Source: an uncultured Flavonifractor sp. (GTDB taxonomy: Bacteria; Bacillota; Clostridia; Oscillospirales; Oscillospiraceae). Taken from it: a stretch of DNA of 64,000 bases. The notes beneath the pieces were generated by a model that ran no database searches, was not told the origin of the DNA, and saw only the letters and a list, made by a program, of their open reading frames with translations. A program made the position numbers and the translations under genes. Within the stretch, counting starts at the first letter, position 1, and every line of letters begins with the position of its first letter. Below are positions 7,657 to 64,000 of this stretch, in pieces. Where the stretch lies: contig CALWXZ010000001.1 in assembly GCA_944385625.1 (NCBI GenBank), positions 28,130 to 92,129 of the forward strand, in the 5' to 3' direction.

Positions 7657-7673
7657 CCTCCTCTCCTCCGATG

Positions 7674-9505: not shown

Positions 9506-9587
9506 TATCCTTCTGTCCACAGGCAAAAATAAATTTCAAGGTCCGTCAAATCCGCTCCCTCCGCCCCGCCGTTTTCCTTCCACACAA

Positions 9588-9623
9588 AAAGAAACCGGAG
9601 CCTTGGTCTGCTCCGGTTTCTTT
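9588..9623. terminator. Bidirectional-type terminator after the SLH protein gene
   Basis: AAAGAAACCGGAGC/GCTCCGGTTTCTTT inverted repeat. Confidence 0.8.
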
Positions 9624-9634
9624 GCTGTCTGTTT

Positions 9635-12600: not shown

Positions 12601-13246
12601 TTGTCTCACCGGCAGACACGCCGGTGACCGTGGCGGTGGTGGAAGGATCATTGGCCTCCACGGTGGCCACGGCGGCATCCTTGGTGGCCCAGGTTACAGT
12701 TTGATCGGCCGTTTCCGGGGTGACCGTGGCGCTGAGCAGGTTTGTCTGCTTAGGGGGCAGCTCCACGGTCTGAGGCACAACCGTGATACCGGCCGCGTCG
12801 TTGGGCGAGACCGTTATATTACAGGTGTCCGTAGGCAGCGCCTTACCGTCCGCCAGCGTCACCGTCACGGTAATGCTTACCTCTTTGATGGTATCGTCCG
12901 TATCCGCTGTTTTGAGGGCCTCCACGGTAGCCGTCAGGCTGCCCTCTTGGGGGGAGACGCTGACCTCATCCGGGTCTGTGCTCTCCCAGGTTACGCGGGT
13001 CCCCTCCGGGATGTCACTGACCGTACTTCCATCCTGGGCCTTCAATGTGACGGTCAGCGTCCCTTTTTCTCCCTCCTTCAAGGCCATGGTATGCTGGTCC
13101 AGGGAGGCGCTGGCAAGGGTAACAGGGGTTTCCGCCGTGGTGCCGCCGCTGCCCTCGCCCTCGGCCGCAGCCGCGGGGACCATGGACATCAGCATTCCCA
13201 GCGCCAGCAGAAGGGCCGGCAGACGAGTTTTTACGCGCTTTTGCAT
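9635..13246 (-). CDS. Secreted S-layer homology protein with Ig-like (Big_2) domains, six ~117-aa repeats and C-terminal SLH domains
   Basis: Signal peptide; SLH motifs (FTDLGSASWA...ITRG, FSDVPADAYY...ITRE, MSRAEAA); repeats share GTLYY...L..(I/V).F....F.GT...Y/F. Confidence 0.85.
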   Translation of the reverse strand: MQKRVKTRLPALLLALGMLMSMVPAAAAEGEGSGGTTAETPVTLASASLDQHTMALKEGEKGTLTVTLKAQDGSTVSDIPEGTRVTWESTDPDEVSVSPQEGSLTATVEALKTADTDDTIKEVSITVTVTLADGKALPTDTCNITVSPNDAAGITVVPQTVELPPKQTNLLSATVTPETADQTVTWATKDAAVATVEANDPSTTATVTGVSAGETTIFASANGLQTECLVQVQGIVLADEERTLRVGKNDTLAYTIYGDSLQKQEVTWISDDRDVVDVNQGYLYPKSVGTATITVSINGYSNYKDTVKITVEKATADVIHASATTGDPLSFSSLLSELRTQSSNVLEKSLRYVSALSVSTQQGTLYYNYVSEGNTGDGVASSANYYVSPGNGQEGLNNITFVPKSDFEGTAVIYYTGYASDGDFFQGTIEVTVDAPDDVTYTSGNGNVVQFEASDFALVCRQQTGGDLSYVTFTLPDESRGTLYEGYRSDSYPGNPVSVSTKYKYSGSPNLEDVYFLPKAGTSGTVTIPYTGYAVNGASFRGRVSIQVKAAVASGDITYSISQGGRVTFDDSDFNSLSRDLTGYSLNRVRFELPPSSQGTLYYNYTSDGNYASLVTEDRNYYRSSSLYLDNVTFVASKDYAGTVAIPFTGWDSQGNRFSGQVGISVSSQGSGTVRYSTYRGGTVTLDDNDFNNLSQDLTGSNLSYVRFTLPASSRGTLYYKYTSPGNYDSKVSESRSYYRSSTPRLDNITFVADDSFTGTVTIDFTAWNTKKEKFSGVVEIDVGTTQNPLNYQVAGGSVLTFQDGDFDDYCRTVTGDDLDYVRFTLPAASQGTLYYSYTSSGSYSSKVSASRNYYSASSPYLDRVSFVPNSSYAGTFSLNFTGRSTEGRQFSGTVTITVAQKQAGSITYSTAYNPVTFRAADFVSACNQRGGGTLKSVQFTGVGQLHGGRLYYGYNGIHATNSQVRSTAVYYPSSTPNLSEISFVPLVGFQGTVSLNYTATDSKGATYQGSVNIQVTPNTTSRHFTDLGSASWATAAVDFLYENGVVSGTQAGIYSPQASITRGSFLVMMDRAFEFPGTGDKSFSDVPADAYYASAVRKAYALGIVSGCPDGTFRPDEAITREAAATMLYRAMVATGWSIGAQQESALYGYSDWQSVSSYARGPMSVLVKNGLLLGNSQNQLRPGQTMSRAEAAVLLARSVTL
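10185..12301 (-). repeat. Six tandem ~117-aa (about 350 bp) beta-sandwich repeats inside the SLH protein
   Basis: Manual alignment of the translated units; DNA is diverged. Confidence 0.8.
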
Positions 13247-13279
13247 CCAAATTCCTCCTTTGGATTGCTGTCAGTCAGA

Positions 13280-13306
13280 ACGGGCGGGCAGAATCTGCCC
13301 GCCCGT
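13280..13306. other. 12-bp GC-rich hairpin between the two SLH genes, without U-tract
   Basis: ACGGGCGGGCAG-AAT-CTGCCCGCCCGT. Confidence 0.6.
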
Positions 13307-13321
13307 CGTGCAACGGTTCTG

Positions 13322-50579: not shown

Positions 50580-50945
50580 AAATCCCTTGTCCTCCCTATT
50601 GCTGGCGCGGTTCCTTCCTCAGATCACTCCAGGATGATCTCTCCGGGACTGTCAGTAAATATGCTTTAACGTATATCATAGCATTTTGATGGCGGGTTAA
50701 GCAAGAGATAATTTATGCTCTGGGAAATTTTTTGCCAAACCCGCCGGAAATGCCTGGCCTGTTCCTCTCTCCAAGTCCGCATCCTTCCGCACGTTGCTCC
50801 AGGCAGGGCCCCCGTATATCATTCAGCGCCCCACGCCGTCTGACAATCGGGGGCCTTTCGCGTTGTCCCGCACAGGGTTATGCCGCTCTCTCATTTCCAT
50901 ATCATCCAATTATTATTGGTTTCATGCCTCACGCCCCGCCTATCG

Positions 50946-50996
50946 ATAAAGCTTATCTATAGATGGACGCGCAGATGGGCGGTTACTTCCAATTGG
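50946..50996 (+). promoter_or_regulatory. LysR-type box plus CCAATTGG element upstream of acyl-CoA dehydrogenase 1
   Basis: ATAA-N7-CTAT, then 28 nt, then CCAATTGGA. Confidence 0.55.
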
Positions 50997-51101
50997 AGGT
51001 TTTGGCGGAAATCCGGTATCATTTATACCAGAGAACCCCCAATACAAAGGCACAAAACAATACAAAACGGGATGCCGTCCCGAAAAGAAAGGATGTTTGT
51101 T

Positions 51102-52226
51102 ATGGCGCTCATGTATACCGAGGAACAAAAGGAATTGCTGGCAATGGTCCGTCAGATGGCAGAGCGGGAAATCAAGCCTCATGTGGCCGAGTGCGACAGA
51201 ACCGGGGAGTGCCCCATGGAGCTGTTCAAGCCCGCCATTGACATGGGACTGCATATGCTGGAGATCCCCGAGGAGTACGGCGGCAGCGGCATGGATTTTG
51301 AGACCACCGCTATGGTTTTTGAAGAGCTGGCCAAAGTGGACGCCGGTTATGCAGACACCCTGGTGACCACCTTTGTGGCCCTGCGCAATGTGATTCTGGC
51401 CGGCACCAAGGAGCAGGCCCAGTACTTTGCCGACGTGGTGGCCGAGGGCAAGTTCGCCTGTTTTGCCATCACCGAGTCCAACGCCGGTTCCGACGCCGGC
51501 GCCCTGCGGGCCACCGCCGTGCGGGACGGGGATGACTTCATCCTCAACGGCACCAAGGTCTTTGCCACCAATGGCTCCTGCGCCTCCCTCTATGTCTCCT
51601 TCTTCCGCACCGAAAAGGGCATCACCGCCTTCCTCATCGACAGAGACACCCCGGGCTTCTCCGTTGGGGCTCACGAGGACAAGATGGGCTTCCGGCTGTC
51701 CAACACCACCGAGCTGGTCTTTGAGGACGTGCGGGTTCCCGCCTCCCGGGTCATCGGCGAGGAGGGCAAGGGCCTGAAGATCGCCATGAGCGGTCTGAAT
51801 ATCTCCCGGGCCTTTGTGGCCACCATGGCCGTGGGTATCATGCAGCGGGCTCTGGACGAGGCCCTGGCCTATGCCAAGCAGCGCACCCAGTTCGGCAAGC
51901 CCATCATCAAGTTCCAGATGGTCCAGGGTATGCTGGCCGATATGGCCATCAAGATCGAGGCCGCCCGGTGCCTGGTGAACAACACCATGAAGATGATTGA
52001 CGCCGGCATGGACGTGCGCAAGGAGGGCTCCATCACCAAGACCTTCGTGACCGACGTGGCTCAGGAGGTCACCTCCAACGCCGTGCAGATTCTGGGCGGC
52101 TACGGCTACAGCAGAGAGTACCCTGTGGAGAAACTCATGCGGGACGTCAAGATCTTCCAGATTTTCGAGGGCACCAACCAGATCCAGCGCCTCACCATCG
52201 CCAAGTGCCTGGAAGCGGAAAACTGA
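51102..52226 (+). CDS. Acyl-CoA dehydrogenase (Bcd/CarC-like)
   Basis: FAITESNAGSD, LNGTKVF, KMGFR, LGGYGY, IFEGTNQIQ; ATG at 51102. Confidence 0.92.
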   Translation: MALMYTEEQKELLAMVRQMAEREIKPHVAECDRTGECPMELFKPAIDMGLHMLEIPEEYGGSGMDFETTAMVFEELAKVDAGYADTLVTTFVALRNVILAGTKEQAQYFADVVAEGKFACFAITESNAGSDAGALRATAVRDGDDFILNGTKVFATNGSCASLYVSFFRTEKGITAFLIDRDTPGFSVGAHEDKMGFRLSNTTELVFEDVRVPASRVIGEEGKGLKIAMSGLNISRAFVATMAVGIMQRALDEALAYAKQRTQFGKPIIKFQMVQGMLADMAIKIEAARCLVNNTMKMIDAGMDVRKEGSITKTFVTDVAQEVTSNAVQILGGYGYSREYPVEKLMRDVKIFQIFEGTNQIQRLTIAKCLEAEN

Positions 52227-52255
52227 TTCTTACTTAACACGGCCGTTGCGGGGAG

Positions 52256-53920
52256 GTGGGCACATTGCCGGAGATGAAGATGGACGGAGCGCGCAGGGAC
52301 CGGTACCACCGTCTGGGCCAGTGGACGGACGACACGCTGCTGGACCGCTGGGACAGGAGCGTTGCGGCCTATGGGGACCGGGAATTTATCTCGGACGACC
52401 AGGGCGGGCGCTATACCTACCGGGAGATGGACCAGCTGGCCGGCCGGACCGCCGCAGTGCTGCGCCGCTATTCCATTGGCGCGGGAGACGTGGTTACCTT
52501 TCAGATCACGCCCCGGTGCGCCTTTGCGGCGGTCACGCTGGCCTGCTTCAAGCTGGGCGCGGTGGCCGTTCCCCTGGGTATGTGCTTTGAGCAAAAGGAA
52601 CTGAACGCGCTGCTGGCCTTTCTGGACAGCCGGCTCCACCTGAGCATGGCGTATTACCGGGACAAAGAGCGGGTCTCCATGCTGAAAGGCGCCACCGCCG
52701 GCCTGCCGCTGCTGAACGGGACCATCCTTGTGGGAGGGAGCTGCCCTGGGGAGGACAGCTCCTTCCCTCTCCTGGAGTCTCTCTGGCAGGAGGCCCTCTC
52801 GCCTCCCCCCTGCCACCGGGGCCACGGGGATGACCTGGCGGTCATCCTGTGTACCTCCGGCACATCCGGCGCCACCCGGGGCAGCAAGGCGGTGATGTTC
52901 ACCCACAACAACATTATCTTCAGCGAGGACGGCTTCAACCGGGAGCTGGGCCTCACCGAAGAGGACGCCATCTTTATGCCCGCCCCCCTCAACCACGCCA
53001 CCGGATTCCACCACGGCCTGATCTCCCCCATGCTCCGGGGGGGCCGGGTGGTACTGCAGGAGCGCTTCCACTGCGCCCAGGCTGTCCGGCAGATGAACGA
53101 CGAGCGCTGCACCTACTCCATGGGGGCCACCCCCTTCATCTACGACCTGGTGGCCCGGCTGGACGAGTCGGGCGAGGAGCTGCCCTGGCTGCGCTTTTAT
53201 GTCAGCGGCGGCGCTCCCCTGCCGGAGGAGCTGGTCAAGCGGGCCTACCAGAACCACAATATTCTGGTGTGCGAATGTTACGGCTCCACCGAAAGCGTCC
53301 CCCATGTGTTCGTCCGGCCCAAGGACGCCCTGCAAGTTATGGGCCGCTGGGCGGGCCAGACCATGGACGGGGTGGAGGTGCGCATTGTGGACAAGGATCA
53401 CAACCCCGTCCCCCCCAACGTCATCGGAGAGGAGGCCTCCCGGGGTCCCAACGTCTTTGTGGGATACTGGAAGCGGCCGGACCTTACCCGGCAGGCGCTG
53501 GATGACCAGGGCTGGTATTACAGCGGAGATCTGTGCATCATGGACGAGGCCGGCAACATCAAGGTGGTGGGCCGGAAAAAGGACATCATCATCCGGGGCG
53601 GAGAGAACCTGAACACCAACGAAATTAACGACGAGCTGGAGGGCTGCCCCGGCGTGACCGATCACGCGGTGATCGGTATGCCGGACTCCCGGCTGGGGGA
53701 GCGGATCTGCGCCTTTGTGGTGTGCCGCCCCCAGGCCCCCGCCCCAACCAAGGACAGTGTGATCGCCTATCTGAAGGCAAAGCACGTCCCCAAGCGCCAC
53801 TGGCCGGAGCGTCTGGAGCGCATCGACGCCATTCCCCGCACGGACAGCGGCAAGGTAAAGAAACACCTGCTGGCCCAGGAGCTGGAGCGCCGGATGGCCG
53901 CAGGAGAGGAGGGGGTGTGA
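52256..53920 (+). CDS. FadK/cyclohexanecarboxylate-CoA-ligase-like AMP-binding enzyme
   Basis: MPAPLNHATGF, GATPFIYDL, YGSTESVPH, GEEASRGPNVFVGY, SGDLC, GRKKDIIIRGGEN, PRTDSGKV, closely matching remembered E. coli FadK motifs. Confidence 0.88.
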   Translation: MGTLPEMKMDGARRDRYHRLGQWTDDTLLDRWDRSVAAYGDREFISDDQGGRYTYREMDQLAGRTAAVLRRYSIGAGDVVTFQITPRCAFAAVTLACFKLGAVAVPLGMCFEQKELNALLAFLDSRLHLSMAYYRDKERVSMLKGATAGLPLLNGTILVGGSCPGEDSSFPLLESLWQEALSPPPCHRGHGDDLAVILCTSGTSGATRGSKAVMFTHNNIIFSEDGFNRELGLTEEDAIFMPAPLNHATGFHHGLISPMLRGGRVVLQERFHCAQAVRQMNDERCTYSMGATPFIYDLVARLDESGEELPWLRFYVSGGAPLPEELVKRAYQNHNILVCECYGSTESVPHVFVRPKDALQVMGRWAGQTMDGVEVRIVDKDHNPVPPNVIGEEASRGPNVFVGYWKRPDLTRQALDDQGWYYSGDLCIMDEAGNIKVVGRKKDIIIRGGENLNTNEINDELEGCPGVTDHAVIGMPDSRLGERICAFVVCRPQAPAPTKDSVIAYLKAKHVPKRHWPERLERIDAIPRTDSGKVKKHLLAQELERRMAAGEEGV

Positions 53921-53922
53921 AC

Positions 53923-54453
53923 ATGAATACCCATGTGGGACCCTGTCGGTTTCTGGCCACCTCCAAGCCGCGGAAAACCAGGCCTGACGCCTGCTTTTAC
54001 CGCTGTTCCAGGTGCGGCAGGCTGCTGATCGGCCTGCCGGCGGAGGGTATTTCCCCGCCTGTATGCTGCGGCGTGGAGATGGAACAGCTCCGCCCCCTCT
54101 GCCTGGACGGCGTGGAAGGAGCGGAGCTGGACTATGAGATCCTGGGCGGACCCAATGAAAACGCGGTCCGGGTGAGCTGGCAGGGGGCCGCCCCAGCCTG
54201 GCTGTGGCTGGACACCTTCCGGGGCGGGCAGTATGTGGAGCCCGGACAGCGGGACCGCCGGGCGGTGTTCGCTCTGGCGGGGGAGGACGCCTATGCCTAC
54301 TGCGACAAAGACCCCTGCGAGGAGTGCAGCTTCCGTTGCAAAAACGGCTTTGTCCTCTATGCCTGGCTGCCGGAAAAGGGGCTGGTGAGCCTGTCTCTCA
54401 ATCGTATTGCCGCCACGTCAGCGACTGGGGTGAATAGGACCAGAATGCCGTGA
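53923..54453 (+). CDS. Desulfoferrodoxin-N-like protein with an atypical Cys-rich C-terminal domain
   Basis: YRCSRCG...VCCGVEM desulforedoxin motif; C-terminal CDKDPCEECSFRC. Confidence 0.65.
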   Translation: MNTHVGPCRFLATSKPRKTRPDACFYRCSRCGRLLIGLPAEGISPPVCCGVEMEQLRPLCLDGVEGAELDYEILGGPNENAVRVSWQGAAPAWLWLDTFRGGQYVEPGQRDRRAVFALAGEDAYAYCDKDPCEECSFRCKNGFVLYAWLPEKGLVSLSLNRIAATSATGVNRTRMP

Positions 54454-55315
54454 CAAAGTCGATAAAGCTCTCCACCGCCCGCTCCTTATACATTTTGCGG
54501 TTGAACACCATATGTACAATCCGGAAATCGGCCGGCACTTCGGGCAGCTCGATAAAGGAGATGTTGGAAAATACGCTGGCCCCCTGGGTCTTCAGCAGGA
54601 TGGCCACGGCGGAGTTGTCCACCAGCAGCTGCCCACACATGGCCTCCTCGCTGCTGTACAGGCACTCGGCGGTAAGGGCATGGTCGGAGAGCAGCTTCTG
54701 AACGCTGGCGCCGATGGGCTGTTCGCTGTGGTAGGAGATCAGGTGCTGGTCCTTCAGCTGGCTGAAGAGAAGGGATTTTTCGCCGGCCAGGGGGTGGTTC
54801 CGGGAGACGGCGGCCACCAGCTGCTGCTGGAGAATGGGCACAAAAAAGAGCTCGGGAATCCCCTCCACCAGGGAACAGAAGCCCACGTCCCACTGTTCCT
54901 TCTGAATGGCGGAGACGATGGTATTGGTCTGGGCCTGATGGACATGGAAGGTGACGTTGGAGCCCTTCGTGGCCAGAAAAGCCCGGGTGACCTGGGGCAG
55001 ATAGTCCCCCTGGATGGTGTGGATGCAGCCGATATCCACGGTGCCTCCCATGATCCCCACGTGCTCCCGGGCAGATTGAATGCCCTTCTCCAGGGTTTGC
55101 AGGGAGGCGGCCACATACTCATAAAACTCCTTTCCATACTTGGTCAGGTAGACGTTGCGGCCCTGTTTCTGGAACAGTTCAATGCCCAGTTCGGACTCAA
55201 GGGTGTTGATTGCACCGCTGAGCGTAGGCTGGGTGATATAGAGCTCCTGGGCGGCCTTTGTGTAGTGCTGAAGCTCCGCCAGCTTACAGAAATAATGAAG
55301 CTGAGACAAATTCAT
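54398..55315 (-). CDS. LysR-family transcriptional regulator
   Basis: MNLSQLHYF...HYTKAAQELYITQPTLSGAINTLESELG...GRNVYLT. Confidence 0.95.
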   Translation of the reverse strand: MNLSQLHYFCKLAELQHYTKAAQELYITQPTLSGAINTLESELGIELFQKQGRNVYLTKYGKEFYEYVAASLQTLEKGIQSAREHVGIMGGTVDIGCIHTIQGDYLPQVTRAFLATKGSNVTFHVHQAQTNTIVSAIQKEQWDVGFCSLVEGIPELFFVPILQQQLVAAVSRNHPLAGEKSLLFSQLKDQHLISYHSEQPIGASVQKLLSDHALTAECLYSSEEAMCGQLLVDNSAVAILLKTQGASVFSNISFIELPEVPADFRIVHMVFNRKMYKERAVESFIDFVTAFWSYSPQSLTWRQYD

Positions 55316-55357
55316 ACCTGTTCCCTCCCTGTATCTTAAAACGCGCTTACGATTATA

Positions 55358-55385
55358 ATTTTATAATTTTCACAATTATTGTCAA
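55358..55385 (-). promoter_or_regulatory. SigmaA promoter of the LysR gene
   Basis: TTGACA-N16-TAAAAT. Confidence 0.7.
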
Positions 55386-55406
55386 CCATTTTGCTCCAAA
55401 TAACAG

Positions 55407-55456
55407 ATAGGAAGAATCTATTGATCCGACGGTTTTCCCGGATGAGAGCCAATTGG
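55407..55456 (+). promoter_or_regulatory. LysR box plus CCAATTGG element upstream of acyl-CoA dehydrogenase 2
   Basis: ATAG-N7-CTAT, then 27 nt, then CCAATTGGA. Confidence 0.6.
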
Positions 55457-55550
55457 ACTTAACGTCCATTTGCAGGTAAGATGAATGCAGAAAGCACGGG
55501 CTGCTTCCGGTTTCCGGATACAAATTCCGTGACATTAAAACGAAAGGGAA

Positions 55551-56735
55551 GTGCATGAAATGAAAATGACCGACGAACAATTCAAGGCGTATCTGCTTCA
55601 GATCCGCGCGCTGGCCGAGGGCCCCTTCGACGAGATGCAGAAGGAGATCGAGGTCACCAACACCTTCCCCAAGGAATTCTATGAGCTGTCCATTAAGAAC
55701 GATCTGTATCGTTTCGCGCTGCCTGAGAAGTACGGCGGATTTGGCCTGAGCGAGAAGCAGATCCTCATGGTCCAGGAGGAGTTCTCCCGCGGCCCCGGCG
55801 GTATGCGTATGCACCTGCATCACGCCGCCGATCTGGACTGGCGTATTCTGGACGACTTCGGCAGCGAGGAGCTGAAGGCTCAGTACATGGACAAGTTCCA
55901 GGACAAGAGCATCTACGCCAACTTCGCTCTGACCGAGGCCACCGGCGGCACCGGCGCCGACATCCACACCACCGCCATCAAGGACGGCGACTACTACGTC
56001 ATCAACGGTGAGAAGACCCTTATCTCCCACACCGACTGCTCCGACTTCACCTACCTGATCGTGAAGACCGATCCCAGCTCCGACAAGGACAGCAGCCTGT
56101 CCGCCTTCTTTGTGGACGTACATACCCCCGGCTATGAGATCGTTCCCATGCCCCACATGATGGGCTGCCGGGGCGCCGGCCACGCCGGCCTGCGCTTCAC
56201 CAATATGCGGGTCCACAAGAAGTTCCTCCTGGGCAAGGAGGGCATGGGCCTGGAGATCGCCATGCACTCTCTGGCCGTTTCCCGCGCCCACATCGCCGTA
56301 TCCAACCTGGGTATGGCCCAGCGTATGCTGGAGCTGACCATCAAGCGGGCCAAGGACCGCGTCACCTTCGGCAAGCCCCTCATCAAGCGCCAGGCCATCC
56401 AGCAGACCATCGCCGACATGGGCACCGAGATCAACGCCCTGCGCCTGATGATCTGGGACTTTGCCAAGGACTATGACGCCGGCAAGAACATCGACATGAA
56501 GGCGGCCATGTGCAAGCTCCACTCCATCAACACCGTCCGCACCGTGTCCGACTCCATGCTGGAGATCTTCGGCGGCATCGGCTACTTTGAGGACTGCGAG
56601 TACGGCCCCGTGGAGCGGCTTTACCGTGACTGCCGCGCCATGTGGCTGGAGGAAGGCCCCCGTACCGTGCAGCGCCTGACCGCGTTCCGCGGCCTGGAGA
56701 AGAACGGCGGCCGGATCGAGTACCTGGACGACTGA
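55551..56735 (+). CDS. Acyl-CoA dehydrogenase, divergent subfamily
   Basis: FALTEATGGTGAD, INGEKTLIS, FGKPLIKRQAIQ, IFGGIGY, LEEGPRTVQ. Confidence 0.9.
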   Translation: MHEMKMTDEQFKAYLLQIRALAEGPFDEMQKEIEVTNTFPKEFYELSIKNDLYRFALPEKYGGFGLSEKQILMVQEEFSRGPGGMRMHLHHAADLDWRILDDFGSEELKAQYMDKFQDKSIYANFALTEATGGTGADIHTTAIKDGDYYVINGEKTLISHTDCSDFTYLIVKTDPSSDKDSSLSAFFVDVHTPGYEIVPMPHMMGCRGAGHAGLRFTNMRVHKKFLLGKEGMGLEIAMHSLAVSRAHIAVSNLGMAQRMLELTIKRAKDRVTFGKPLIKRQAIQQTIADMGTEINALRLMIWDFAKDYDAGKNIDMKAAMCKLHSINTVRTVSDSMLEIFGGIGYFEDCEYGPVERLYRDCRAMWLEEGPRTVQRLTAFRGLEKNGGRIEYLDD

Positions 56736-56787
56736 TCCCGCACCGGCAACTGAATCGGAAACAGGGCAAGCAGCCTTGCGTAGCCAG

Positions 56788-56832
56788 GGGGCCGTCGGGT
56801 GGGCAAACGCCCGACGGCCCCTTCATTTTTTA
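56788..56832 (+). terminator. Terminator-like hairpin inside the operon
   Basis: GGGGCCGTCGGG/CCCGACGGCCCC followed by TTCATTTTTT. Confidence 0.6.
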
Positions 56833-56849
56833 CGGGAAAGGAGATTGCT

Positions 56850-58070
56850 ATGAGACCGTTATCAGGGGTAAAGGTGGTGGATCTGACCACCTTTCTGGCA
56901 GCTCCCACCACTTGCCGGGTATTGGGCGAGTGGGGAGCCGACGTAATCAAGGTGGAGTCCCCCTCCGGAGATCCCGGCCGCACCCAGGGTGCCGTGTTCG
57001 GAATGCCCTACGAGGACGAGGAAAATCTGGGCTTTGATATGTCCAACATGAACAAGCGGTTTGTCACCATCAACCTGAAAAATGAGAAGGGTATGGAGGT
57101 GTTTCACCGTCTGCTGGCCGAGGCCGACGTATTCGTCACCAACATCCGCACCAAGTCCCTGGTGAAGATGGGCCTGGACTATGACAGTCTGAAGGAGAAA
57201 TATCCCCGGCTCATCTTTGCCCAGTGCCTGGGCTACGGCGAGAAGGGGCCGGAAAAGGATACCGCCGGCTTCGACGTGACCTGTTATATGGCCCGGGGCG
57301 GCGTATTCGGCACCACCGTCAACAAGGGGGACGCTCCCATGATCCCCACCAACGGCTTCGGTGATTTTCAGGTGTCCATGTGCCTGGCCTCCGGCATCTG
57401 CGCCGCCCTCTTCAACCGCCAGCGCACCGGGGCCGGAGACAAGGTCACCGTCAGCCTCCACCACGCCGCCATCTTTATGCTCAGTACCGCCGTGGTCTCC
57501 GCTCAGTACGGCAACCAGTATCCCAAGAGCCGCCGGGAGGTCATCTGTCCCACCAACAACGTGTTCCGTACCAAGGACCAGAAGTGGGTGGCCCTGTGCG
57601 CCCCCCAGTACGACCGGGACTACAACAAGGTCATGACCCTCATCGGCCGGCCCGATCTGGTGGACCACCCCGACTACTCCAACTGTGACCACATGAACGA
57701 ACTGGGCAAAAATTCCGAGGTGGTGGACATTATGGACGAGGCCATCTCCAAGTTCACCCGGGCGGAACTGCTCAAGCTCTTCAAGGAAAACGACCTGCCC
57801 TGCGAGGCCTGCTATGAGCCGGTGGATATGTACACCGACGAGCAGGTGTGGGCCAACGAGATCATGACCAAGCTGGACTGTCCCTCCGGCCAGCGCAACA
57901 TCGCCACCGCGCCGGTCAAATTCGCCACCAACACGCAGCCCTCCTACAAAGTCACCGCCGCCCAGGGTACGGACACCGCCTCGGTCATGGCGGAGCTGGG
58001 ATACGGCGAGGACGCCATCCGCCAGTATATGGATGAGGGCGCGGTGCGGGGAAAGACCGCGCTGAAGTAA
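56850..58070 (+). CDS. Family III (CaiB/BaiF) CoA transferase, FldA/HadA-like
   Basis: LSGVKVVDL, GADVIKVE, ADVFVTN, GYGEKGP, GFGD (catalytic Asp), VSLHHAAI, QYGN. Confidence 0.9.
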   Translation: MRPLSGVKVVDLTTFLAAPTTCRVLGEWGADVIKVESPSGDPGRTQGAVFGMPYEDEENLGFDMSNMNKRFVTINLKNEKGMEVFHRLLAEADVFVTNIRTKSLVKMGLDYDSLKEKYPRLIFAQCLGYGEKGPEKDTAGFDVTCYMARGGVFGTTVNKGDAPMIPTNGFGDFQVSMCLASGICAALFNRQRTGAGDKVTVSLHHAAIFMLSTAVVSAQYGNQYPKSRREVICPTNNVFRTKDQKWVALCAPQYDRDYNKVMTLIGRPDLVDHPDYSNCDHMNELGKNSEVVDIMDEAISKFTRAELLKLFKENDLPCEACYEPVDMYTDEQVWANEIMTKLDCPSGQRNIATAPVKFATNTQPSYKVTAAQGTDTASVMAELGYGEDAIRQYMDEGAVRGKTALK

Positions 58071-58101
58071 GCGTTCTTATTGTGCAGGACCATGTAAAGG
58101 A

Positions 58102-59391
58102 GTGTATACGTTGAAAAGCAAAAAGTATATTCTCTCTCTGCTGAGCGTCTACCTTGTCTACATGACCCATGGCATTCAGGCCATCGTTCTCTCCCAGAAC
58201 CTGGACCAGTTTGCCGCCCAGTGGGGCACCGATGAGGCCGGGGTATACGCCGTGATCGGCTATACCGGACTGGCCAAATTCATCAGCGTGTGGATCTGCG
58301 GCGAACTCTCTGACAAGATCGGACGTAAAATCATGATTGTTCTGGGCGCCGTCATGTATGTGGGCTTCTTCGGCCTGCTGCTGGGCACTTCCAATCTGGT
58401 GGTTGCCGGCGTGGCGGCCTTCCTGGCCGGCCTGGCCACCTCCTTCTTCGACGGCGCCTGCTATCCTGTGGCACAGGAAACCTGGGTCTCCTCCCCCGGC
58501 ACCGCCGTGATTCTCATCAAAGGTGTAATCTCCGTCAGCGGCCTGATCTACCCCATGCTGGTGGTGGGTCTGCGCAGCTCCGGCAACTGGAAGGCGGGCG
58601 TACTGCTGCCTCTGGTGATGTCGGTCATCGTGCTGGTGGTCTCCCTCATCTCCTCCTACTGCTATGACGACGAGCGCAAGCGCAAAAAGCGGGAGGGCTC
58701 CGCCGCCGAGAGCGGGCAGCAGGGCAAGCTGGACGACGACGCCCAGCGCGGTCTGGCCCGCTTTGTCAGAAAGCCCCCCGCCTTCGTCACCGTGGGCTGC
58801 GCCATCTACGGCTTTATCGCCATGGCGGCCATGTACTCCGGCCAGCAGCTGCTCACCCGCTTCGGCCTGACCATTGTGGGCATGGATGATATCGGCGCCG
58901 CCTCCCTCACCAGCCTGTACACCGGCGGCTCCCTGGCCGCCGTGATTATCTGGGGCGTGTTTATGGCCAAGTTCCGCTGGCGCAACCTGAAGGTTGTCCT
59001 GGTGGATCTGATCGGCGCCGTCGTCTCTTACGCCCTGGTGTGCCTCATCCATGTTGGCATCGTGGTGCAGATTGCAGCCCTGGGCATCGGCTTCTTCGCC
59101 GCCGGCGGCGCGTTGCAGTGCGGCGTCACCCTGATGCAGGAGTTCCACCCCGGCAACAAGGGCCGGAACCTGGGCATCTACTACACCTTCATGGGGGCGG
59201 CCTCCTATGCGCTGCCCGTCATCCAGTCCACCCTCACCGCCAATTCCAACGAGGGTGACGCCATTCTCCAGAGCCTGCTGCTGAACCTGGGCCTCACCGC
59301 GGTGGGCGCAGTGTTCATGCTCTACCTGGCCTTCAACTACAAGAAGTGGTTCGGCGTCAGCGTCATGTCCCCCAGAGGGCCCAACGAGTAA
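58102..59391 (+). CDS. MFS transporter, YdiM/YdiN-like
   Basis: About 12 TM helices, GELSDKIGRK motif A, Y..HG and QF...W.T.EAGV N-terminus like YdiM; likely TTG start at 58111. Confidence 0.85.
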   Translation: MYTLKSKKYILSLLSVYLVYMTHGIQAIVLSQNLDQFAAQWGTDEAGVYAVIGYTGLAKFISVWICGELSDKIGRKIMIVLGAVMYVGFFGLLLGTSNLVVAGVAAFLAGLATSFFDGACYPVAQETWVSSPGTAVILIKGVISVSGLIYPMLVVGLRSSGNWKAGVLLPLVMSVIVLVVSLISSYCYDDERKRKKREGSAAESGQQGKLDDDAQRGLARFVRKPPAFVTVGCAIYGFIAMAAMYSGQQLLTRFGLTIVGMDDIGAASLTSLYTGGSLAAVIIWGVFMAKFRWRNLKVVLVDLIGAVVSYALVCLIHVGIVVQIAALGIGFFAAGGALQCGVTLMQEFHPGNKGRNLGIYYTFMGAASYALPVIQSTLTANSNEGDAILQSLLLNLGLTAVGAVFMLYLAFNYKKWFGVSVMSPRGPNE

Positions 59392-59461
59392 ACCCATAAT
59401 CCGCGGGCAGGGCCTGCGGATCTCCTCACAACCATCGACACAAAGGAGGCACGGTTCATCC

Positions 59462-60514
59462 ATGAAATGGAGAAACAAGATACTGGCCGGCTTCCTGGTG
59501 GCGGTCAGCGTACTGGTGGCCGGTAGGGAGCTGTGGAATACGGTGACCGGCTTGACCGCAGATTATCCGGAAAACGATATCAACGGCTACATTGCCTGGG
59601 CTGCCGGCGGCGCCACCGACACCATCTCCCGCGTAATCGCCATCTGCGCCCAGGACGAGTTGGGCGCCAACATCATCCTCCAGAATAAAACCGGGGCTTC
59701 CGGAGGCATCGCCACGGAATTTGTCTATCAGCAGCCGGCCGACGGCTACTCCCTGCTGTTTAACGCCGAAAATCCGCCCCTGTACGAGGTGATGGACATC
59801 TCCTCCATCACCTACGACCAGTTCTATCCCGTGCTGCTCTTCGGGGCGCAGACCCCGGTGATTATCGTGGCCGCCGACTCCCCCTACCAGTCCATCACCG
59901 AGCTTCTGGACGACGCGGCCCGGCGGCCCGGTGAGATCAGCATCGGCATCACCGGAGCCGGCGGCCTGCCCTTCAACGTGGCCGCCATGCTCCAGGCCAC
60001 CAGCGGAGTGGAGTTCAATCAGATTCCTTTCGACGGCGATTCCGCCGTCGTATCCGCCCTGATGGGCGGCCATGTGGATATCTCGGTGGTCAACTACTCC
60101 GCGGCGGCGGAGCTGGCCCAGGGCGGGCGGCTGCGGATTCTCACCGTCATGGACAACCAGCGCCTGGAGAGCGAGCCCGACATCGAGGCCATCGGCGAGG
60201 TGCTGCCGGAGTATCAGCACTACTTCCCCTGGGGCGCCTTCTTCGGGGTCTTCGTGGACGACCGGTGCAGCGATACCGTGAAGCAGATCCTGACGGACGC
60301 CTTCCGGAGAGCCTACGAGAGCGACACCTTCCAGGCCTATCTTGCGGAGAACTACATCCAGCCGCTGGGCCTGAGCGGGGATGAGGCGAGAAGCTACATC
60401 CAGCGCTGGCAGTCCATCTCCGCGTGGCTGCTGGAGGACGCGGGCGCGGCCGCAGTCTCTCCCGCCGAGGTGGGGATTCCCCGTTTGGAGGAGCTGGAAG
60501 GAGGGAGCTCATGA
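59462..60514 (+). CDS. tctC: Tripartite tricarboxylate transporter substrate-binding protein
   Basis: YP...I...AAGGATD, NKTGASGGIA, PADGYSL, GDSAVVSALMGGHVD. Confidence 0.9.
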   Translation: MKWRNKILAGFLVAVSVLVAGRELWNTVTGLTADYPENDINGYIAWAAGGATDTISRVIAICAQDELGANIILQNKTGASGGIATEFVYQQPADGYSLLFNAENPPLYEVMDISSITYDQFYPVLLFGAQTPVIIVAADSPYQSITELLDDAARRPGEISIGITGAGGLPFNVAAMLQATSGVEFNQIPFDGDSAVVSALMGGHVDISVVNYSAAAELAQGGRLRILTVMDNQRLESEPDIEAIGEVLPEYQHYFPWGAFFGVFVDDRCSDTVKQILTDAFRRAYESDTFQAYLAENYIQPLGLSGDEARSYIQRWQSISAWLLEDAGAAAVSPAEVGIPRLEELEGGSS

Positions 60515-60960
60515 AACAGGGTGAACGTGTGTTCAATTGGATTCTGCTGGCCTTGTCCATTGTCTTTTGCCTGCTCTCCCTGAGCATCACGCCGGTCACG
60601 GAGCTTACGCTGACGTCCGACGGGGCCTACCCTCTTTTCATTTCCTGTCTCAGCCTGCTTTTTGCCCTGTGCATCCTGCTGGACTCCCGAAAGCGCCGCC
60701 GGGCCGGGGCTTCCCAGTCCGACGGCCCAGAGGAGCAGCCGGTGTTCTGCCGGGACGTGGTGGTGATGATCCTGTTTGTGATCATCTATGCCGCCGCCAT
60801 CCTGGTGGTCCACTACATCCTGGCCACCCTTCTGTTTACCATTCTGTCCATCTCCTACCTGGAACAATGGAAGTGGCGCAGGGGGCTGCTGATCGGCTTT
60901 ACATCCACATTTTGGATTGTACTGATCTTCAAGTATTTCTTCAGCGTCATTTTGCCGTAG
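60511..60960 (+). CDS. tctB: TctB small membrane subunit
   Basis: 4 TM helices, YP after TM1, F...F.VILP end; ATG at 60511. Confidence 0.85.
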   Translation: MKQGERVFNWILLALSIVFCLLSLSITPVTELTLTSDGAYPLFISCLSLLFALCILLDSRKRRRAGASQSDGPEEQPVFCRDVVVMILFVIIYAAAILVVHYILATLLFTILSISYLEQWKWRRGLLIGFTSTFWIVLIFKYFFSVILP

Positions 60961-60974
60961 GGGGGTGAGAGTCC

Positions 60975-62441
60975 ATGCTGATACAAATCTGTTTTGTGGC
61001 GCTGGGCGTATTTGCCGGCATCTATGTGGGGGCCATCCCCGGCCTGAGCGTGACTATGGCCACCTCTCTGCTCATCGCCATGACCTATTCCTGGAGTACC
61101 GACACCGCCCTGGCCGTGATGATCGGCGTGTATGTGGGCGGGGTGTACGGCGGCTCCCGCGCCGCCGTGCTGCTCAACATCCCGGGCGCCCCGTCGGCGG
61201 TGGCCACCACCTTTGACGGCTACCCTCTGGCAAAAAAGGGCCTGGCGGGTCAGGCCATCGCCGTCAGCACCCTTACGTCGGTGGTGGGCGGTCTGGTGGG
61301 CACACTGTTTCTCTGCTTTGCCTCCCCCCTGGTCTCCTCCGTGGCCCTGTCCTTCAGCCCCAGGGACTACTTCCTGCTCACCCTGATGGGGCTGATGCTG
61401 GTGGGCAGTCTGGGGGGCAAGTCCATCTGGAAGGGCCTGTTCTCCGCCGCCGCCGGCCTCATGCTGGGGATCGTGGGCATGGACCCCATCAGCGGCCTGG
61501 GCCGGCTGACCTTCGGCAATGTAAATCTGCGGGGCGGGATCAGCTACATCGCTGTCATGATCGGGCTGTTCGGCGTGGGAGAGGCCCTCTTCCAGCTGTT
61601 GCACCGCAACCAGCCCATCGTCCGTCAGAAGGTGGACTCCATCCGTCCACCCAAGAACAAGCTGCTGAAGCTCTTCCCCCTGTCCCTGGGCAGCGGCGTA
61701 ATCGGCACCCTGGTGGGCGCCCTGCCCGGCGCCGGCGGTGAGATCGCGGCCCTGCTGGCCTACGACACCGCCAAGCGGGTGGTCCGCCATCCCGAGGTCC
61801 CCTTCGGAGAAGGGGCCTACGAAGGCGTGGTCGCCCCGGAGTCGGCCAACAACGCGGCGGTGGGCGGAGCCCTCATTCCCATGCTGACCCTGGGGATTCC
61901 CGGGGATTCCGTGACCGCCATCCTCATCGGCGCGCTGGCCATCCACGGCATTCGGGCGGGCCCCATGCTCATGACCGAATCCCCGGACCTGTTTAACAAC
62001 CTTGTGTTCCTGCTGCTGCTGGCCAACATCTTTTTGCTGGTACTGGGCATGATGGGCATCAAGCTCTTTGCCAAAATGGCGGAGATCCCCCGGAATATCC
62101 TGCTGCCCATGATAATCGTTGTCTCGGTAATCGGCAGCTATTCCATCAACAACCTGACCATCGACATTGTCTGGACCCTGGTATTCGGCGTTGTGGGCTA
62201 TTTCATGAAGTATTACGACGTGCCGGTGGGCCCCATGGTATTGGGGCTGATTCTGGGGCCCACCATCGAGGTCAATTTCCGTCGGGCGATTCTGAGCTCC
62301 GGCGGGCTGTTCTCCATGCTGGGGGAAGTGGTCACCAACCCCCTCTCCCTGGTGCTCCTGGTAATTATGGTGCTGATGATCGTCAGCCAGGTCCTGAGCA
62401 GCCGGTCCAAAAACAAGGAGCCAGTCTCCCCCGGGCAGTAA
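60975..62441 (+). CDS. tctA: TctA large membrane subunit
   Basis: GAIPGLS, GGVYGGS...NIPG..S..TTFDGYP, APESANNA, LTLGIPG. Confidence 0.93.
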   Translation: MLIQICFVALGVFAGIYVGAIPGLSVTMATSLLIAMTYSWSTDTALAVMIGVYVGGVYGGSRAAVLLNIPGAPSAVATTFDGYPLAKKGLAGQAIAVSTLTSVVGGLVGTLFLCFASPLVSSVALSFSPRDYFLLTLMGLMLVGSLGGKSIWKGLFSAAAGLMLGIVGMDPISGLGRLTFGNVNLRGGISYIAVMIGLFGVGEALFQLLHRNQPIVRQKVDSIRPPKNKLLKLFPLSLGSGVIGTLVGALPGAGGEIAALLAYDTAKRVVRHPEVPFGEGAYEGVVAPESANNAAVGGALIPMLTLGIPGDSVTAILIGALAIHGIRAGPMLMTESPDLFNNLVFLLLLANIFLLVLGMMGIKLFAKMAEIPRNILLPMIIVVSVIGSYSINNLTIDIVWTLVFGVVGYFMKYYDVPVGPMVLGLILGPTIEVNFRRAILSSGGLFSMLGEVVTNPLSLVLLVIMVLMIVSQVLSSRSKNKEPVSPGQ

Positions 62442-62479
62442 GTCTATCAGGCAATCAGTTGCGGAAAGGACTTGACATT

Positions 62480-63460
62480 ATGAAATATATGCGTATCAAA
62501 GGTCTGGAAAAACCCATCTCCAAGATCATCATGGGCAGCGCCTGGATGACGCTGGAGGATGAAAAGCGGGGCCACGCCATCTTTGACGCCTATTTTGAGG
62601 CCGGCGGCAACGTGCTGGACACCGGCCGGTTCTACGGCCGGGGCTCGGGCATCGCCAAAAGCGAAAACATTGTGGGCAACTGGCTCAAAAGCGCCGGCAT
62701 CCCCAGAGAGGATGTACATATCATCGACAAGGCCGGCCATCCCTTCATCACCCGGGACGGCGTCACCCACTGGGAGCGCAGCCGGATCTGGCCGGAGACC
62801 ATCACCGACGATCTGATGTACAGCCTGGACAACGTGGGGGTGGACTATTTCGACATCTACGAGCTCCACAGAGACAATCCCAAGGTTCCCGTTTCCGACT
62901 TGATGGACCGGCTGGAGTATCACTGCCTGATGGGCCAGATCAAGGCCTACGGCGTGAGTAACTGGCGGCTGGACCGGCTGCAGGAGGCCATTGATTACTG
63001 CAACCACATGGGGTATCAGGGTCTGTCCTGCAATAACCCCTCCTACTCCCTGGCTACCGTCAAGGTGCCCCGCTTCCCCGGCGGGGTATATGCCGACGAT
63101 GCCTATGCCCGCAAGCACAAGGAGTGGGAGCTGCCCATTATCTCCTGGGGCGCCCAGGGGGCCGGCTTCTTCGCCGGCATCTATGATCCCTCCGGCGCCG
63201 GCGTGAACGGCGGCATCATCCAGGCCTATTTCTCGGAGGAGAATTTCAGGAAGCTGGACCGCTGCCGGGAGTTGGGAGCCAAAAAGGGTGTGGACTCCAT
63301 CAATCTGGCGCTGGCCTATATTCTCAACCAGGATTTTGACGTGGCCGCCGTCATCGGGCCCCAGAGCGTGGAGGAACTGCGCTCCTCGCTGGTGGGCGGG
63401 GATCTGGAGCTCACCCCGGCGGAGGTGGCCTACCTGGGTCTGTACAGCGACGTCTGCTGA
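62480..63460 (+). CDS. Aldo/keto reductase
   Basis: GGNVLDTGRFYG (Asp/Tyr), DYFDIYELHRD, GVSNW; ATG at 62480. Confidence 0.88.
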   Translation: MKYMRIKGLEKPISKIIMGSAWMTLEDEKRGHAIFDAYFEAGGNVLDTGRFYGRGSGIAKSENIVGNWLKSAGIPREDVHIIDKAGHPFITRDGVTHWERSRIWPETITDDLMYSLDNVGVDYFDIYELHRDNPKVPVSDLMDRLEYHCLMGQIKAYGVSNWRLDRLQEAIDYCNHMGYQGLSCNNPSYSLATVKVPRFPGGVYADDAYARKHKEWELPIISWGAQGAGFFAGIYDPSGAGVNGGIIQAYFSEENFRKLDRCRELGAKKGVDSINLALAYILNQDFDVAAVIGPQSVEELRSSLVGGDLELTPAEVAYLGLYSDVC

Positions 63461-63475
63461 AAGGAGTGTTCCGGT

Positions 63476-64000
63476 ATGATCTCTGTCAATACAAAGCTGG
63501 TCTGTCTGCTCGGCACACCTCTGGGCCAGAGCCTCTCCCCCAAGATGCACAACGGGGTCTATGAGACGCTGGGCCTGGACTACTACTACTTCCCTGTGGA
63601 GGTGGCCCACAAGGAGGACCTGCCCGTCCTGCTGGTCGCCATCCGCAAGATGAATTTCGCGGGCTTTGCCATCACCAAGCCCTACAAAATCGACATTCTG
63701 GACTACGTGGATCACATCGACCCCCTGGCCCAAAAGATCGGCTCCAGCAACACGGTGGTCCGTGGAGCGGACGGCAGCCTGACCGCCTATAACACCGACG
63801 GCGTGGGCTTTGCCGAGTCTCTGATGGCGGCGGTGGGCCGGGACCTGAGCGCCCACACCCTTTTTGCGCTGGGGGCGGGAGGTGCCTCCCGAGCGGGCAC
63901 CTTTACCGTGGTCCATGAGGGCCTGAAAAAGCTGTATATTACTGATGTGTACCCCCAGGCCGCCCAGTCCCTGGTGCGGGACCTGAAGGAGCGGACCGAC
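63476..64000 (+). CDS. Shikimate/quinate dehydrogenase family protein (truncated by the window end)
   Basis: Manual translation: LLGTPLGQSLSPKMHN, ITKPYK, GSSNTV, YNTDGVG, LGAGGAS. Confidence 0.9.
   Translation, partial: MISVNTKLVCLLGTPLGQSLSPKMHNGVYETLGLDYYYFPVEVAHKEDLPVLLVAIRKMNFAGFAITKPYKIDILDYVDHIDPLAQKIGSSNTVVRGADGSLTAYNTDGVGFAESLMAAVGRDLSAHTLFALGAGGASRAGTFTVVHEGLKKLYITDVYPQAAQSLVRDLKERTD

Follow-up and report, generated by a model that had tools for sequence, protein, structure and literature searches.

A gene cluster whose products are predicted to act on coenzyme A (CoA) thioesters lies at the end of a 64,000-nt stretch of DNA (hereafter the window, from whose first letter all positions are counted) of an uncultured Flavonifractor sp. 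(GenBank assembly GCA_944385625.1, contig CALWXZ010000001.1, here C1). The genome assembly comprises 2.53 Mb in 190 contigs, with a GC content of 62% and a completeness of 92%, and the window corresponds to C1:28130-92129. The gene map was based on an open reading frame (ORF) listing and on Pfam and NCBIfam profile scans, and the rest of the contig was fetched beyond the window. A first-pass annotation of the window had listed a FadK-like ligase, two acyl-CoA dehydrogenases (ACADs), a YdiM-like transporter of the major facilitator superfamily (MFS), the tripartite carboxylate transporter TctCBA, an aldo-keto reductase (AKR) and a shikimate/quinate dehydrogenase (SDH). All of these were found on the + strand by Pfam/NCBIfam scans and BLAST. 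The earlier list had omitted two genes, encoding a LysR regulator (54398-55315, - strand) and a 176-aa cysteine-rich protein (53923-54453).

Organization of the gene cluster

The cluster consists of two operons. The first one begins with ACAD-1 (51102-52226, + strand, 374 aa), a butyryl-CoA-dehydrogenase-like acyl-CoA dehydrogenase/reductase with three Pfam ACAD domains, whose start at 51102 is supported by the length of its orthologues (380 aa). It is followed by the FadK-like acyl-CoA ligase (52256-53920, + strand, 554 aa; PF00501 and PF13193) and by the cysteine-rich protein (+ strand), which has eight conserved cysteines and a predicted desulfoferrodoxin fold (the 8-Cys protein below) and starts 2 nt past the ligase gene. 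The LysR-family regulator (PF00126, PF03466) is divergent from the second operon. This operon opens with ACAD-2 (55551-56735, + strand, 394 aa; the real start may be ATG 55560), a divergent enzyme of the acyl-CoA dehydrogenase family with Pfam ACAD domains, and continues with a family III (CaiB/BaiF) CoA-transferase (56850-58070, + strand; PF02515, 310 bits). The latter starts at ATG 56850 behind a GGAG ribosome-binding site, which gives a protein of 406 aa, and its orthologues have 405-408 aa. Further downstream, all on the + strand, are the YdiM/YdiN-related MFS transporter (58102-59391; PF07690), TctC (59462-60514), TctB (60537-60968) and TctA (60975-62441) of the tripartite carboxylate transporter (PF03401, PF01970), the AKR (62459-63460; PF00248; probable start 62480, 326 aa) and the YdiB-like SDH (283 aa; PF08501 76 bits, PF18317 38 bits), which runs from 63476 to window-equivalent position 64327 and is cut by the window end at 64000.

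The contig extends 2.4 kb past the window and holds the rest of the SDH gene, a metallo-beta-lactamase (MBL)-fold hydrolase (64360-65349, 329 aa), EtfB (65396-66220, 274 aa) and the initial ~43 codons of EtfA, cut short by the contig end. The first-pass annotation had proposed to inspect this DNA for aroD, electron-transfer flavoprotein (Etf) and dehydratase genes; EtfB and the start of EtfA are there, but neither aroD nor a dehydratase gene was found in the 2.4 kb up to the contig end. The stretch from the CoA-transferase gene through etfB is encoded on a single strand, with 6-70 nt between neighbouring genes. The first-pass annotation had also named both a CoA transferase and a family III transferase. 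A family III enzyme is indeed present, but it is one gene alone, counted twice if two enzymes were meant.

The region upstream of 50880 encodes proteins of motility and signalling without relation to the cluster (FlgK, FlgL, DUF6470, a REC-HD protein and a PilZ protein). The best matches of the cluster genes were found in metagenome-assembled genomes (MAGs) of Oscillospiraceae. Base composition gives no sign of a recent island (53-67% GC per kb in the cluster, compared with 62% for the genome), and an Rfam scan of the 18.5-kb locus yielded no riboswitch or other RNA family.

Regulatory elements

A promoter/operator-like region precedes each operon. The one upstream of ACAD-1 (50941-51024, + strand) contains ATCTATAGAT at 50955, a spacer of 24 nt, CCAATTGGA at 50989 (-35-like TTGGAG), a further 18 nt and the -10-like TATCAT. 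The one upstream of ACAD-2 (55416-55485, + strand) has a common architecture with it: ATCTATTGAT at 55416, 23 nt, CCAATTGGA at 55449 (-35-like TTGGAC), 18 nt and the -10-like TAAGAT. The composite element ATCTAT[AT]GAT-N20-28-CCAATTGGA occurs in exactly 2 copies in the 2.53-Mb genome, before ACAD-1 and before ACAD-2. As these sole copies stand one before each operon, they support a single regulon, presumably under the divergently encoded LysR protein, with the composite element as its putative site.

Between ACAD-2 and the CoA-transferase gene lies a strong terminator-like hairpin (56786-56833, + strand), formed by a 16-bp stem with 12 G-C pairs and trailed by a T-run. Most of ~70 related loci have a stable hairpin at the equivalent place, frequently together with a T-run, its sequence varying by lineage. 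It is likely to be a conserved intra-operon partial terminator or stabiliser, which would separate ACAD-2 expression from that of the downstream genes. In Lachnospiraceae, the hairpins at this place show a recurrent palindrome of the type GGTCATCAGG...CCTGATGACC.

Conservation of the cluster

Hundreds of relatives of the CoA-transferase were found at 63-85% identity, with orthologues in this range across Oscillospiraceae, Eubacterium, Hungatella, Lacrimispora and Enterocloster. For the survey of related loci, 80 loci were fetched from named genomes, their ORFs were called and the proteins were clustered. The ORFs were called by a simple longest-ORF rule, so that the counts given below are approximate, with a few genes masked by longer reverse-strand ORFs. 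The 80 loci include kin and hence are not independent; they represent 31 CoA-transferase lineages (90% clusters). Neighbouring families were those recurring in at least 3 loci, and part of these were annotated.

The conserved core consists of the CoA-transferase (78/80 loci), ligase (72/80), ACAD-2 (70/80), LysR (69/80), ACAD-1 (68/80), the 8-Cys protein (64/80), an MFS transporter of either of two families (64/80), EtfA (52/80) and EtfB (51/80). A second membrane protein without a Pfam match was present in 37 of the 80 loci and a divergently transcribed 4HBT thioesterase in 33, while TctC and TctA accompany the core in 12 and 11 loci, respectively. Among the carriers are Hungatella hathewayi DSM 13479, Lacrimispora defluvii, L. 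amygdalina, Enterocloster bolteae, E. clostridioformis and Ventrimonas faecis, as well as MAGs of Eubacterium and numerous ones of Oscillospiraceae. The core genes follow one of two orders: ACAD2-CoA-transferase-ACAD1-EtfBA-ligase-8-Cys-(membrane protein)-MFS-LysR in Lachnospiraceae, and ACAD1-ligase-8-Cys-LysR(reverse)-ACAD2-CoA-transferase-MFS-(TctCBA) in Oscillospiraceae, the window included. No orthologues were found in 23 congeners (the best match was a 30% identical CoA-transferase paralogue) or in an even sample of 398 Clostridia genomes. Being accessory and patchy in its distribution, the cluster allows no argument from vertical inheritance. The grouping of its genes is not a matter of chance, because the core recurs in about 80 loci from many genera. 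A full-text literature search found no published substrate assignment for this operon family.

Among the annotated families recurring beside the core there is no enoyl-CoA hydratase, 3-hydroxyacyl-CoA dehydrogenase or thiolase, which argues for a chemistry in which the acid is activated, passes through one or two flavin-dependent steps and is released, and not for beta-oxidation. The classical view of the Escherichia coli ydi/fadK genes, by which the cluster would be a module of anaerobic fatty-acid beta-oxidation or reverse beta-oxidation, finds an echo in the FadK-like ligase (40% identity) and the YdiO-like ACADs (28-31%). In addition to the missing enzymes, it is contradicted by the transporters (YdiM/N-type MFS and TctCBA), which suit polar carboxylates, and by the linkage of SDH, AKR and dehydroquinase to the core, and we consider it very improbable.

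Enzymes of the predicted CoA loop

The ligase had its best NCBIfam match in PRK06087 (661 bits, cut-off 736) and is 40% identical over 541 aa to E. coli FadK (YdiD), an enzyme that acts on short- and medium-chain acids in vitro. The second-best NCBIfam match was the cyclohexanecarboxylate-CoA ligase TIGR03208 (366 bits, cut-off 792). Its nearest solved structures are aryl-acid ligases, among them salicylate-AMP ligase (194 bits) and dihydroxybenzoate-AMP ligases.

No equivalog-level NCBIfam match was obtained for the CoA-transferase. The named families that came closest were formyl-CoA, succinate-glutarate and CaiB transferases, with scores far short of the cut-offs, and no dehydratase gene lies nearby, so that the FldA/HadA type proposed in the first-pass annotation finds no support. 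In particular, 2-hydroxyacyl-CoA dehydratase (HGD-D) genes are absent from the cluster and from the 2.4 kb downstream. There is likewise no YdiF-type family I CoA-transferase in the cluster (no BLAST match to YdiF), the PF02515 enzyme being the sole transferase. Two adjacent family III CoA-transferase paralogues, 25-27% identical to the cluster enzyme, are encoded on another contig of the same genome (C2, 37227-39146).

The two ACADs differ considerably from each other. ACAD-1 is closest to structures of the Bcd type (5lnx, 318 bits; Clostridium difficile Bcd 5ol2_C, 302 bits; CarC 6fah_C, 270 bits) and retains the catalytic Glu of the (Y/F)EG motif. The best PDB match of ACAD-2 reached just 198 bits (5ol2_C); it also has a Glu at the position of the catalytic base, in an unusual WLEEGP motif, and its substrate-side loop reads MMGCRGAGH, compared with KMGFRLSNT in ACAD-1. 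The respective scores of ACAD-1 and ACAD-2 were 338 and 190 bits with cyclohexane-1-carbonyl-CoA dehydrogenase NF043006 (cut-off 650), 207 and 128 bits with TIGR03207 (cut-off 575), and 248 and 175 bits with NF008997 (PRK12341, annotated 'acyl-CoA dehydrogenase'; cut-off 537), which we take to be the YdiO equivalog.

EtfB scored 231 bits with the bifurcating EtfB 4kpu, 230 bits with CarD, 217 bits with 5ol2 and 103 bits with human ETF. By this similarity the Etf is assigned to the electron-bifurcating class. The MBL-fold hydrolase shows weak similarity to glyoxalase II and to the acyl-CoA thioesterase PqsE (30-47 bits), from which we would guess that it is a thioesterase.

These scores bear on a further explanation, namely that the cluster is an oxidative module for the anaerobic degradation of cyclohexanecarboxylate or another alicyclic acid. 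In the Geobacter/Syntrophus pathway, a CoA-transferase and two ACADs turn cyclohexanecarboxylate into the dienoyl-CoA, and the same trio is present here; NF043006 is, moreover, the second-best NCBIfam match of both ACADs, as the cyclohexanecarboxylate-CoA ligase family is that of the ligase. The scores, however, are about half of the cut-offs or less (338 and 190 vs 650; 366 vs 792), and the solved cyclohexanecarboxyl-CoA dehydrogenase 7xp7 gives 197 bits with ACAD-1, against 318 for a generic Bcd. The annotated families recurring beside the core include no dienoyl-CoA hydratase, 3-hydroxyacyl-CoA dehydrogenase or ring hydrolase, and the Etf belongs, by similarity, to the bifurcating class, which is typical of reductive use in fermenters. 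An oxidative role is improbable, though less so than beta-oxidation, and with needed enzymes lacking among the annotated neighbour families and scores below threshold, both readings were rejected.

A reductive CoA loop, such as those of caffeate respiration and crotonobetaine reduction, is in our opinion highly probable, its steps being read from the family membership of the proteins. The locus would be a horizontally mobile, LysR-controlled pair of operons, and an organic acid would be taken up by the YdiM/YdiN-related MFS transporter and TctCBA. The ligase would prime the loop by forming the first acyl-CoA at the cost of ATP, the ACAD/Etf proteins would reduce the enoyl-CoA with NADH (probably with ferredoxin too), and the family III transferase would hand the CoA of the reduced product on to the next acid to arrive. 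The product would then leave the cell, the acid having served as an electron sink.

The 8-Cys protein

The protein encoded behind the ligase gave no Pfam (including superoxide reductase, SOR) or NCBIfam match. In the 64 loci that carry it, it always directly follows the ligase gene. The conserved cysteines form two groups, C28, C31, C48 and C49 (CxxC...CC) and C127, C132, C135 and C139 (C-x4-C-x2-C-x3-C). Its AF2 model (mean pLDDT 78.6) had desulfoferrodoxin 1dfx as the top Foldseek match (E 8e-5, target-normalised TM 0.69), with SORs at ranks 2-7. The cysteines of the first group fit a desulforedoxin-type N-terminal Cys4 site and the C-terminal domain has an SOR fold in the model, but no invariant or near-invariant His was found among 38 members of the family, as the iron site of SOR (4 His + 1 Cys) would need. 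According to the model, the protein is predicted to have a desulfoferrodoxin fold without the SOR iron site, and it is probably a metal or redox partner coupled to the ligase.

Shikimate dehydrogenase, aldo-keto reductase and transporters

The best PDB matches of the SDH were the Listeria enzyme 3tnl (179 bits) and E. coli YdiB 1npd (169 bits), and its catalytic Lys (P-x-K motif) and Asp (NTDG) align with those of 3tnl and YdiB. It is 37% identical to YdiB and scored 173 bits with the YdiB equivalog PRK12749 (cut-off 349). Two SDH-family genes are present in the genome. The other one is a 488-aa open frame located 0.7 kb from a type II dehydroquinase gene on contig C90 and is taken as the housekeeping copy, the operon SDH being taken as an extra paralogue. 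The latter gene lies between the transporter genes and etfBA with gaps of 15-46 nt.

The family of the AKR is small, with 116 proteins at E<=1e-40. Its best solved relatives are AKRs that include DepB (about 80 bits), an enzyme that reduces the ring ketone of 3-keto-deoxynivalenol. By analogy with DepB-type AKRs, the AKR together with the SDH might epimerise a ring hydroxyl. A 58% identical AKR homologue is encoded on a contig of a Syntrophomonadaceae MAG, where its gene immediately precedes an SDH gene and is flanked by TRAP and Tct transporters, and elsewhere homologues of the SDH (66%) and the MBL-fold hydrolase (60%) were found as a pair. AKR-SDH(-MBL) thus appears, from these gene neighbourhoods, to be a recurring module tied to carboxylate uptake. 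The full Syntrophomonadaceae block (positions 1-15834 of the fetched locus) comprises two TRAP transporters, a zinc alcohol dehydrogenase, the AKR, the SDH, TctCBA and a second TctC. On another contig (1412-8981), a 'lin0876'-type AKR, 41% identical to that of the window, is accompanied by a zinc alcohol dehydrogenase, a 651-aa reductase similar to Old Yellow Enzyme (OYE) and FadH, a short-chain dehydrogenase/reductase, an MFS transporter and a GntP permease; this set may provide a further way of reducing a polar ring acid.

The MFS transporter is 30% identical to both E. coli YdiM (E 3e-50) and YdiN (E 2e-47). TctA and TctC are 55% and 39% identical, respectively, to those of a LysR-TctCBA-SDH-type I dehydroquinase operon of Oscillibacter valericigenes, which also encodes a homologue of the SDH (46%). 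In strain Sjm18-20 (AP012044.1; positions 1-11666 of the fetched locus), this operon adjoins genes for a thiamine pyrophosphate enzyme, an aldehyde dehydrogenase and an AP_endonuc_2 (xylose-isomerase-like) protein. It looks like a different, CoA-independent route for quinate/shikimate, fed by the Tct transporter.

Evidence for and against a quinate/shikimate-type substrate

Coffee, fruit and forage are rich in quinate and shikimate, which gut microbes are reported to turn into cyclohexanecarboxylate, from which the host forms hippurate. A full-text literature search found no publication that assigns genes to a CoA-dependent route of quinate/shikimate conversion in the gut.

Taken as a whole, the locus is best explained as a LysR-controlled CoA loop acting on a quinate/shikimate-type acid, a view in which we have moderate confidence. 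Ahead of CoA activation, quinate, dehydroquinate, dehydroshikimate and shikimate or their epimers would be interconverted by the SDH and AKR. Reduction of the ring enoyl-CoA, perhaps combined with reductive dehydroxylation, would fall to the two ACADs and lead towards a hydroxylated or plain cyclohexanecarboxylate. That the substrate is a hydroaromatic (quinate/shikimate-type) acid, to which we give an even chance, is suggested by the position of the AKR-SDH-MBL module between the transporter genes and etfBA of one operon.

A quinate/shikimate pathway had been proposed in the first-pass annotation, and further arguments in its favour are that the operon SDH is an extra paralogue, that homologues occur beside Tct/TRAP transporters and a dehydroquinase, and that 18 of the 80 related loci carry an SDH (17 loci) or a type I dehydroquinase (3 loci). 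The 17 SDH-linked loci are distributed over 8 of the 31 CoA-transferase lineages and show at least five arrangements. Two loci of one lineage (L025 and L041) hold the series MFS-SDH-type I dehydroquinase-SDH inside the cluster and a third SDH on the same contig, 9 kb from the chorismate synthase gene. The series SDH-type I dehydroquinase-SDH is the set needed for the conversion of quinate through dehydroquinate and dehydroshikimate to shikimate. In another locus (L030), an additional housekeeping SDH lies beside chorismate synthase. In E. coli, moreover, ydiB-aroD has independently come together with FadK, an ACAD, an Etf, two MFS genes and a CoA-transferase that is not homologous to the one here. 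The ring-acid ligases that follow FadK among the relatives of the ligase also speak for such an acid, and so do the occurrence of shikimate in faeces and its use by other gut bacteria to accept electrons.

Several results weigh against a hydroaromatic substrate. Both SDH and type I dehydroquinase are absent from 62 of the 80 loci. Among five core genomes without a linked SDH that were checked, those of Hungatella, two Lacrimispora and Ventrimonas have one SDH each and that of Enterocloster alcoholdehydrogenati has two. Three genomes with a chorismate synthase (G042, G043 and G044, with loci L026, L062 and L079) have no good SDH besides the linked one, which may thus be nothing more than a housekeeping aroE that happens to lie there. 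At three loci (L019, L023 and L026), ddl and murF follow the linked SDH, and in the SDH tree the cluster-linked SDHs and the sole SDHs of Lachnospiraceae share one YdiB-like clade. No type I dehydroquinase gene (aroD) was found in the 92%-complete genome, although the housekeeping type II dehydroquinase could stand in for it. The cluster contains no dehydratase for the removal of ring hydroxyls, unless ACAD-2 does it. Finally, both ACADs are far below every NCBIfam equivalog cut-off, including those of cyclohexanecarboxyl-CoA dehydrogenases.

Alternatively, the same CoA loop with Etf-dependent enoyl-CoA reduction would serve a substrate without relation to quinate or shikimate, such as a hydroxycinnamate/aryl-acrylate, a dienoic or dicarboxylic acid (sorbate, muconate) or an unsaturated short- or medium-chain acid, the SDH neighbours being incidental (housekeeping aroE or separately acquired modules). 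The resemblance of ACAD-1 to CarC and of EtfB to CarD of caffeate respiration and the closeness of the ligase to FadK point to such a substrate, in addition to the 62 loci without SDH or dehydroquinase, the three genomes in which the linked SDH is the sole one, and the single SDH in four of the five checked core genomes without a linked SDH (two in the fifth). This alternative is harder to reconcile with an extra SDH paralogue placed between core genes of one operon, with the two loci that hold SDH-type I dehydroquinase-SDH in the cluster plus a separate third SDH, and with the same association in E. coli with a non-homologous transferase; nor is a phenolic-acid decarboxylase or esterase among the annotated families recurring beside the core. 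We regard another substrate as possible but less probable than a quinate/shikimate-type acid, and if it is correct, the operon remains an uncharacterised electron-sink pathway of gut anaerobes.

Two potential indicators were discarded. Membership in the YdiB class is no marker of a catabolic SDH: in Lacrimispora and Ventrimonas, even the sole SDH shares 45-46% identity with YdiB and groups with the cluster-linked enzymes in one clade. A shikimate kinase and a type II dehydroquinase near the core of one locus (L012) were left uncounted, as they resemble a housekeeping aro operon (cf. contig C90).

In only one of the related species, a member of the Oscillospiraceae (loci L014, L015 and L022), a gene pair of the HGD-D (2-hydroxyacyl-CoA dehydratase/benzoyl-CoA reductase) family lies on the opposite strand, convergent on tctA (about 15980-18409 in L014). 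As quinate is a 2-hydroxy acid, it is conceivable that this pair is a quinoyl-CoA dehydratase giving a shikimoyl-CoA-like enoyl-CoA.

As for the product of the proposed quinate/shikimate loop, none of the analyses made gave support to the cyclohexanecarboxylate suggested in the first-pass annotation, and plain cyclohexanecarboxylate as the end product seems rather unlikely. The most far-reaching form of the hypothesis is offered only tentatively: the operon family would enable gut Clostridia to convert dietary quinate/shikimate, by CoA-dependent reduction and dehydroxylation, to cyclohexene- or cyclohexane-carboxylate (the hippurate precursor), with ACAD-2 as a new flavin-dependent reductive dehydroxylase/eliminase acting on ring thioesters and the 8-Cys protein as a new dedicated electron or metal partner. 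If true, a conserved orphan operon would gain a function and the E. coli ydi/fadK genes a place in physiology, and novel chemistry of the ACAD type and a novel role of a desulfoferrodoxin-like protein might come to light. Cultured strains from the human gut carry the operon family (Hungatella hathewayi DSM 13479, Enterocloster, Lacrimispora), so that the hypothesis is directly testable.

Comparison with known systems

As a CoA-loop reductive electron sink, the system is of a known kind; it differs by its two ACADs, the cysteine protein of desulfoferrodoxin fold, the LysR regulon and the hydroaromatic linkage. The carABCDE operon of Acetobacterium woodii (caffeate respiration, with the bifurcating caffeyl-CoA reductase-Etf complex, PDB 6fah) likewise combines ligase, CoA-transferase, ACAD-type enoyl-CoA reductase and EtfBA in one operon, and the likeness extends to the sequences (ACAD-1 270 bits to CarC, EtfB 230 bits to CarD) and to the lack of beta-oxidation genes. 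Only the cluster described here has two ACADs (the second very divergent), the 8-Cys protein, LysR, dedicated transporters and the linked SDH, AKR and MBL-fold hydrolase.

The E. coli K-12 ydi locus (ydiM, ydiN-ydiB-aroD-ydiF-ydiO, ydiP, ydiQRST-fadK), with which the first-pass annotation had compared the cluster, resembles it in the ligase, MFS, SDH, ACADs and EtfB (27-40% identity: FadK 40%, YdiB 37%, YdiM/N 30%, ACADs to YdiO 28-31%, EtfB to YdiQ 27%). The analogy fails for the CoA-transferase, which belongs to family III here and to family I (YdiF) in the ydi locus, and for the missing aroD. YdiS and YdiT were not seen either (the contig ends inside etfA), the regulator here is of the LysR family and YdiP had no BLAST match to any cluster protein, and the Etf is assigned to the clostridial bifurcating class. 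The second ACAD, the 8-Cys protein, TctCBA, the AKR and the MBL-fold hydrolase are extras of the Flavonifractor cluster.

The caiTABCDE and fixABCX genes of E. coli encode a CaiB-type family III transferase, a ligase, an ACAD-type reductase and Etf, which form a CoA loop with a polar acid as electron sink. The cluster is distinct from them, with equivalog scores of 124 bits for CaiB (cut-off 413) and 199 bits for CaiA (cut-off 540), and it has neither a CaiD hydratase nor a BCCT antiporter.

The Streptomyces/Alicyclobacillus ansJKLM-chcA genes encode a CoA ligase and ACAD-family and enoyl-CoA reductases that act on shikimate-derived ring thioesters; they are biosynthetic, occur in aerobes and have no Etf.

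Shikimate is present in faeces and is an electron acceptor for other gut bacteria: in Eggerthella lenta and Sutterella wadsworthensis, a single shikimate-induced flavin reductase of the respiratory type acts on the free acid, independently of CoA (10.1101/2022.12.26.521950). The role proposed for our cluster is alike, i.e. shikimate would be an anaerobic electron acceptor in the gut, reduced as an enoate, but the chemistry would involve CoA thioesters with ACAD/Etf.

Reductases of the FadH/OYE type also occur around the operon family. In 7 related loci, mostly of Oscillospiraceae (L016, L017, L020, L025, L030, L038 and L041), the core is accompanied by a 668-aa OYE + FAD/NAD(P) reductase (2,4-dienoyl-CoA reductase/enoate reductase/BaiCD type), which may be an extra reductase of ring C=C bonds. 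In the Flavonifractor genome, a FadH/OYE-like reductase is encoded on contig C2 (46927-48819), which also carries the two CoA-transferase paralogues.

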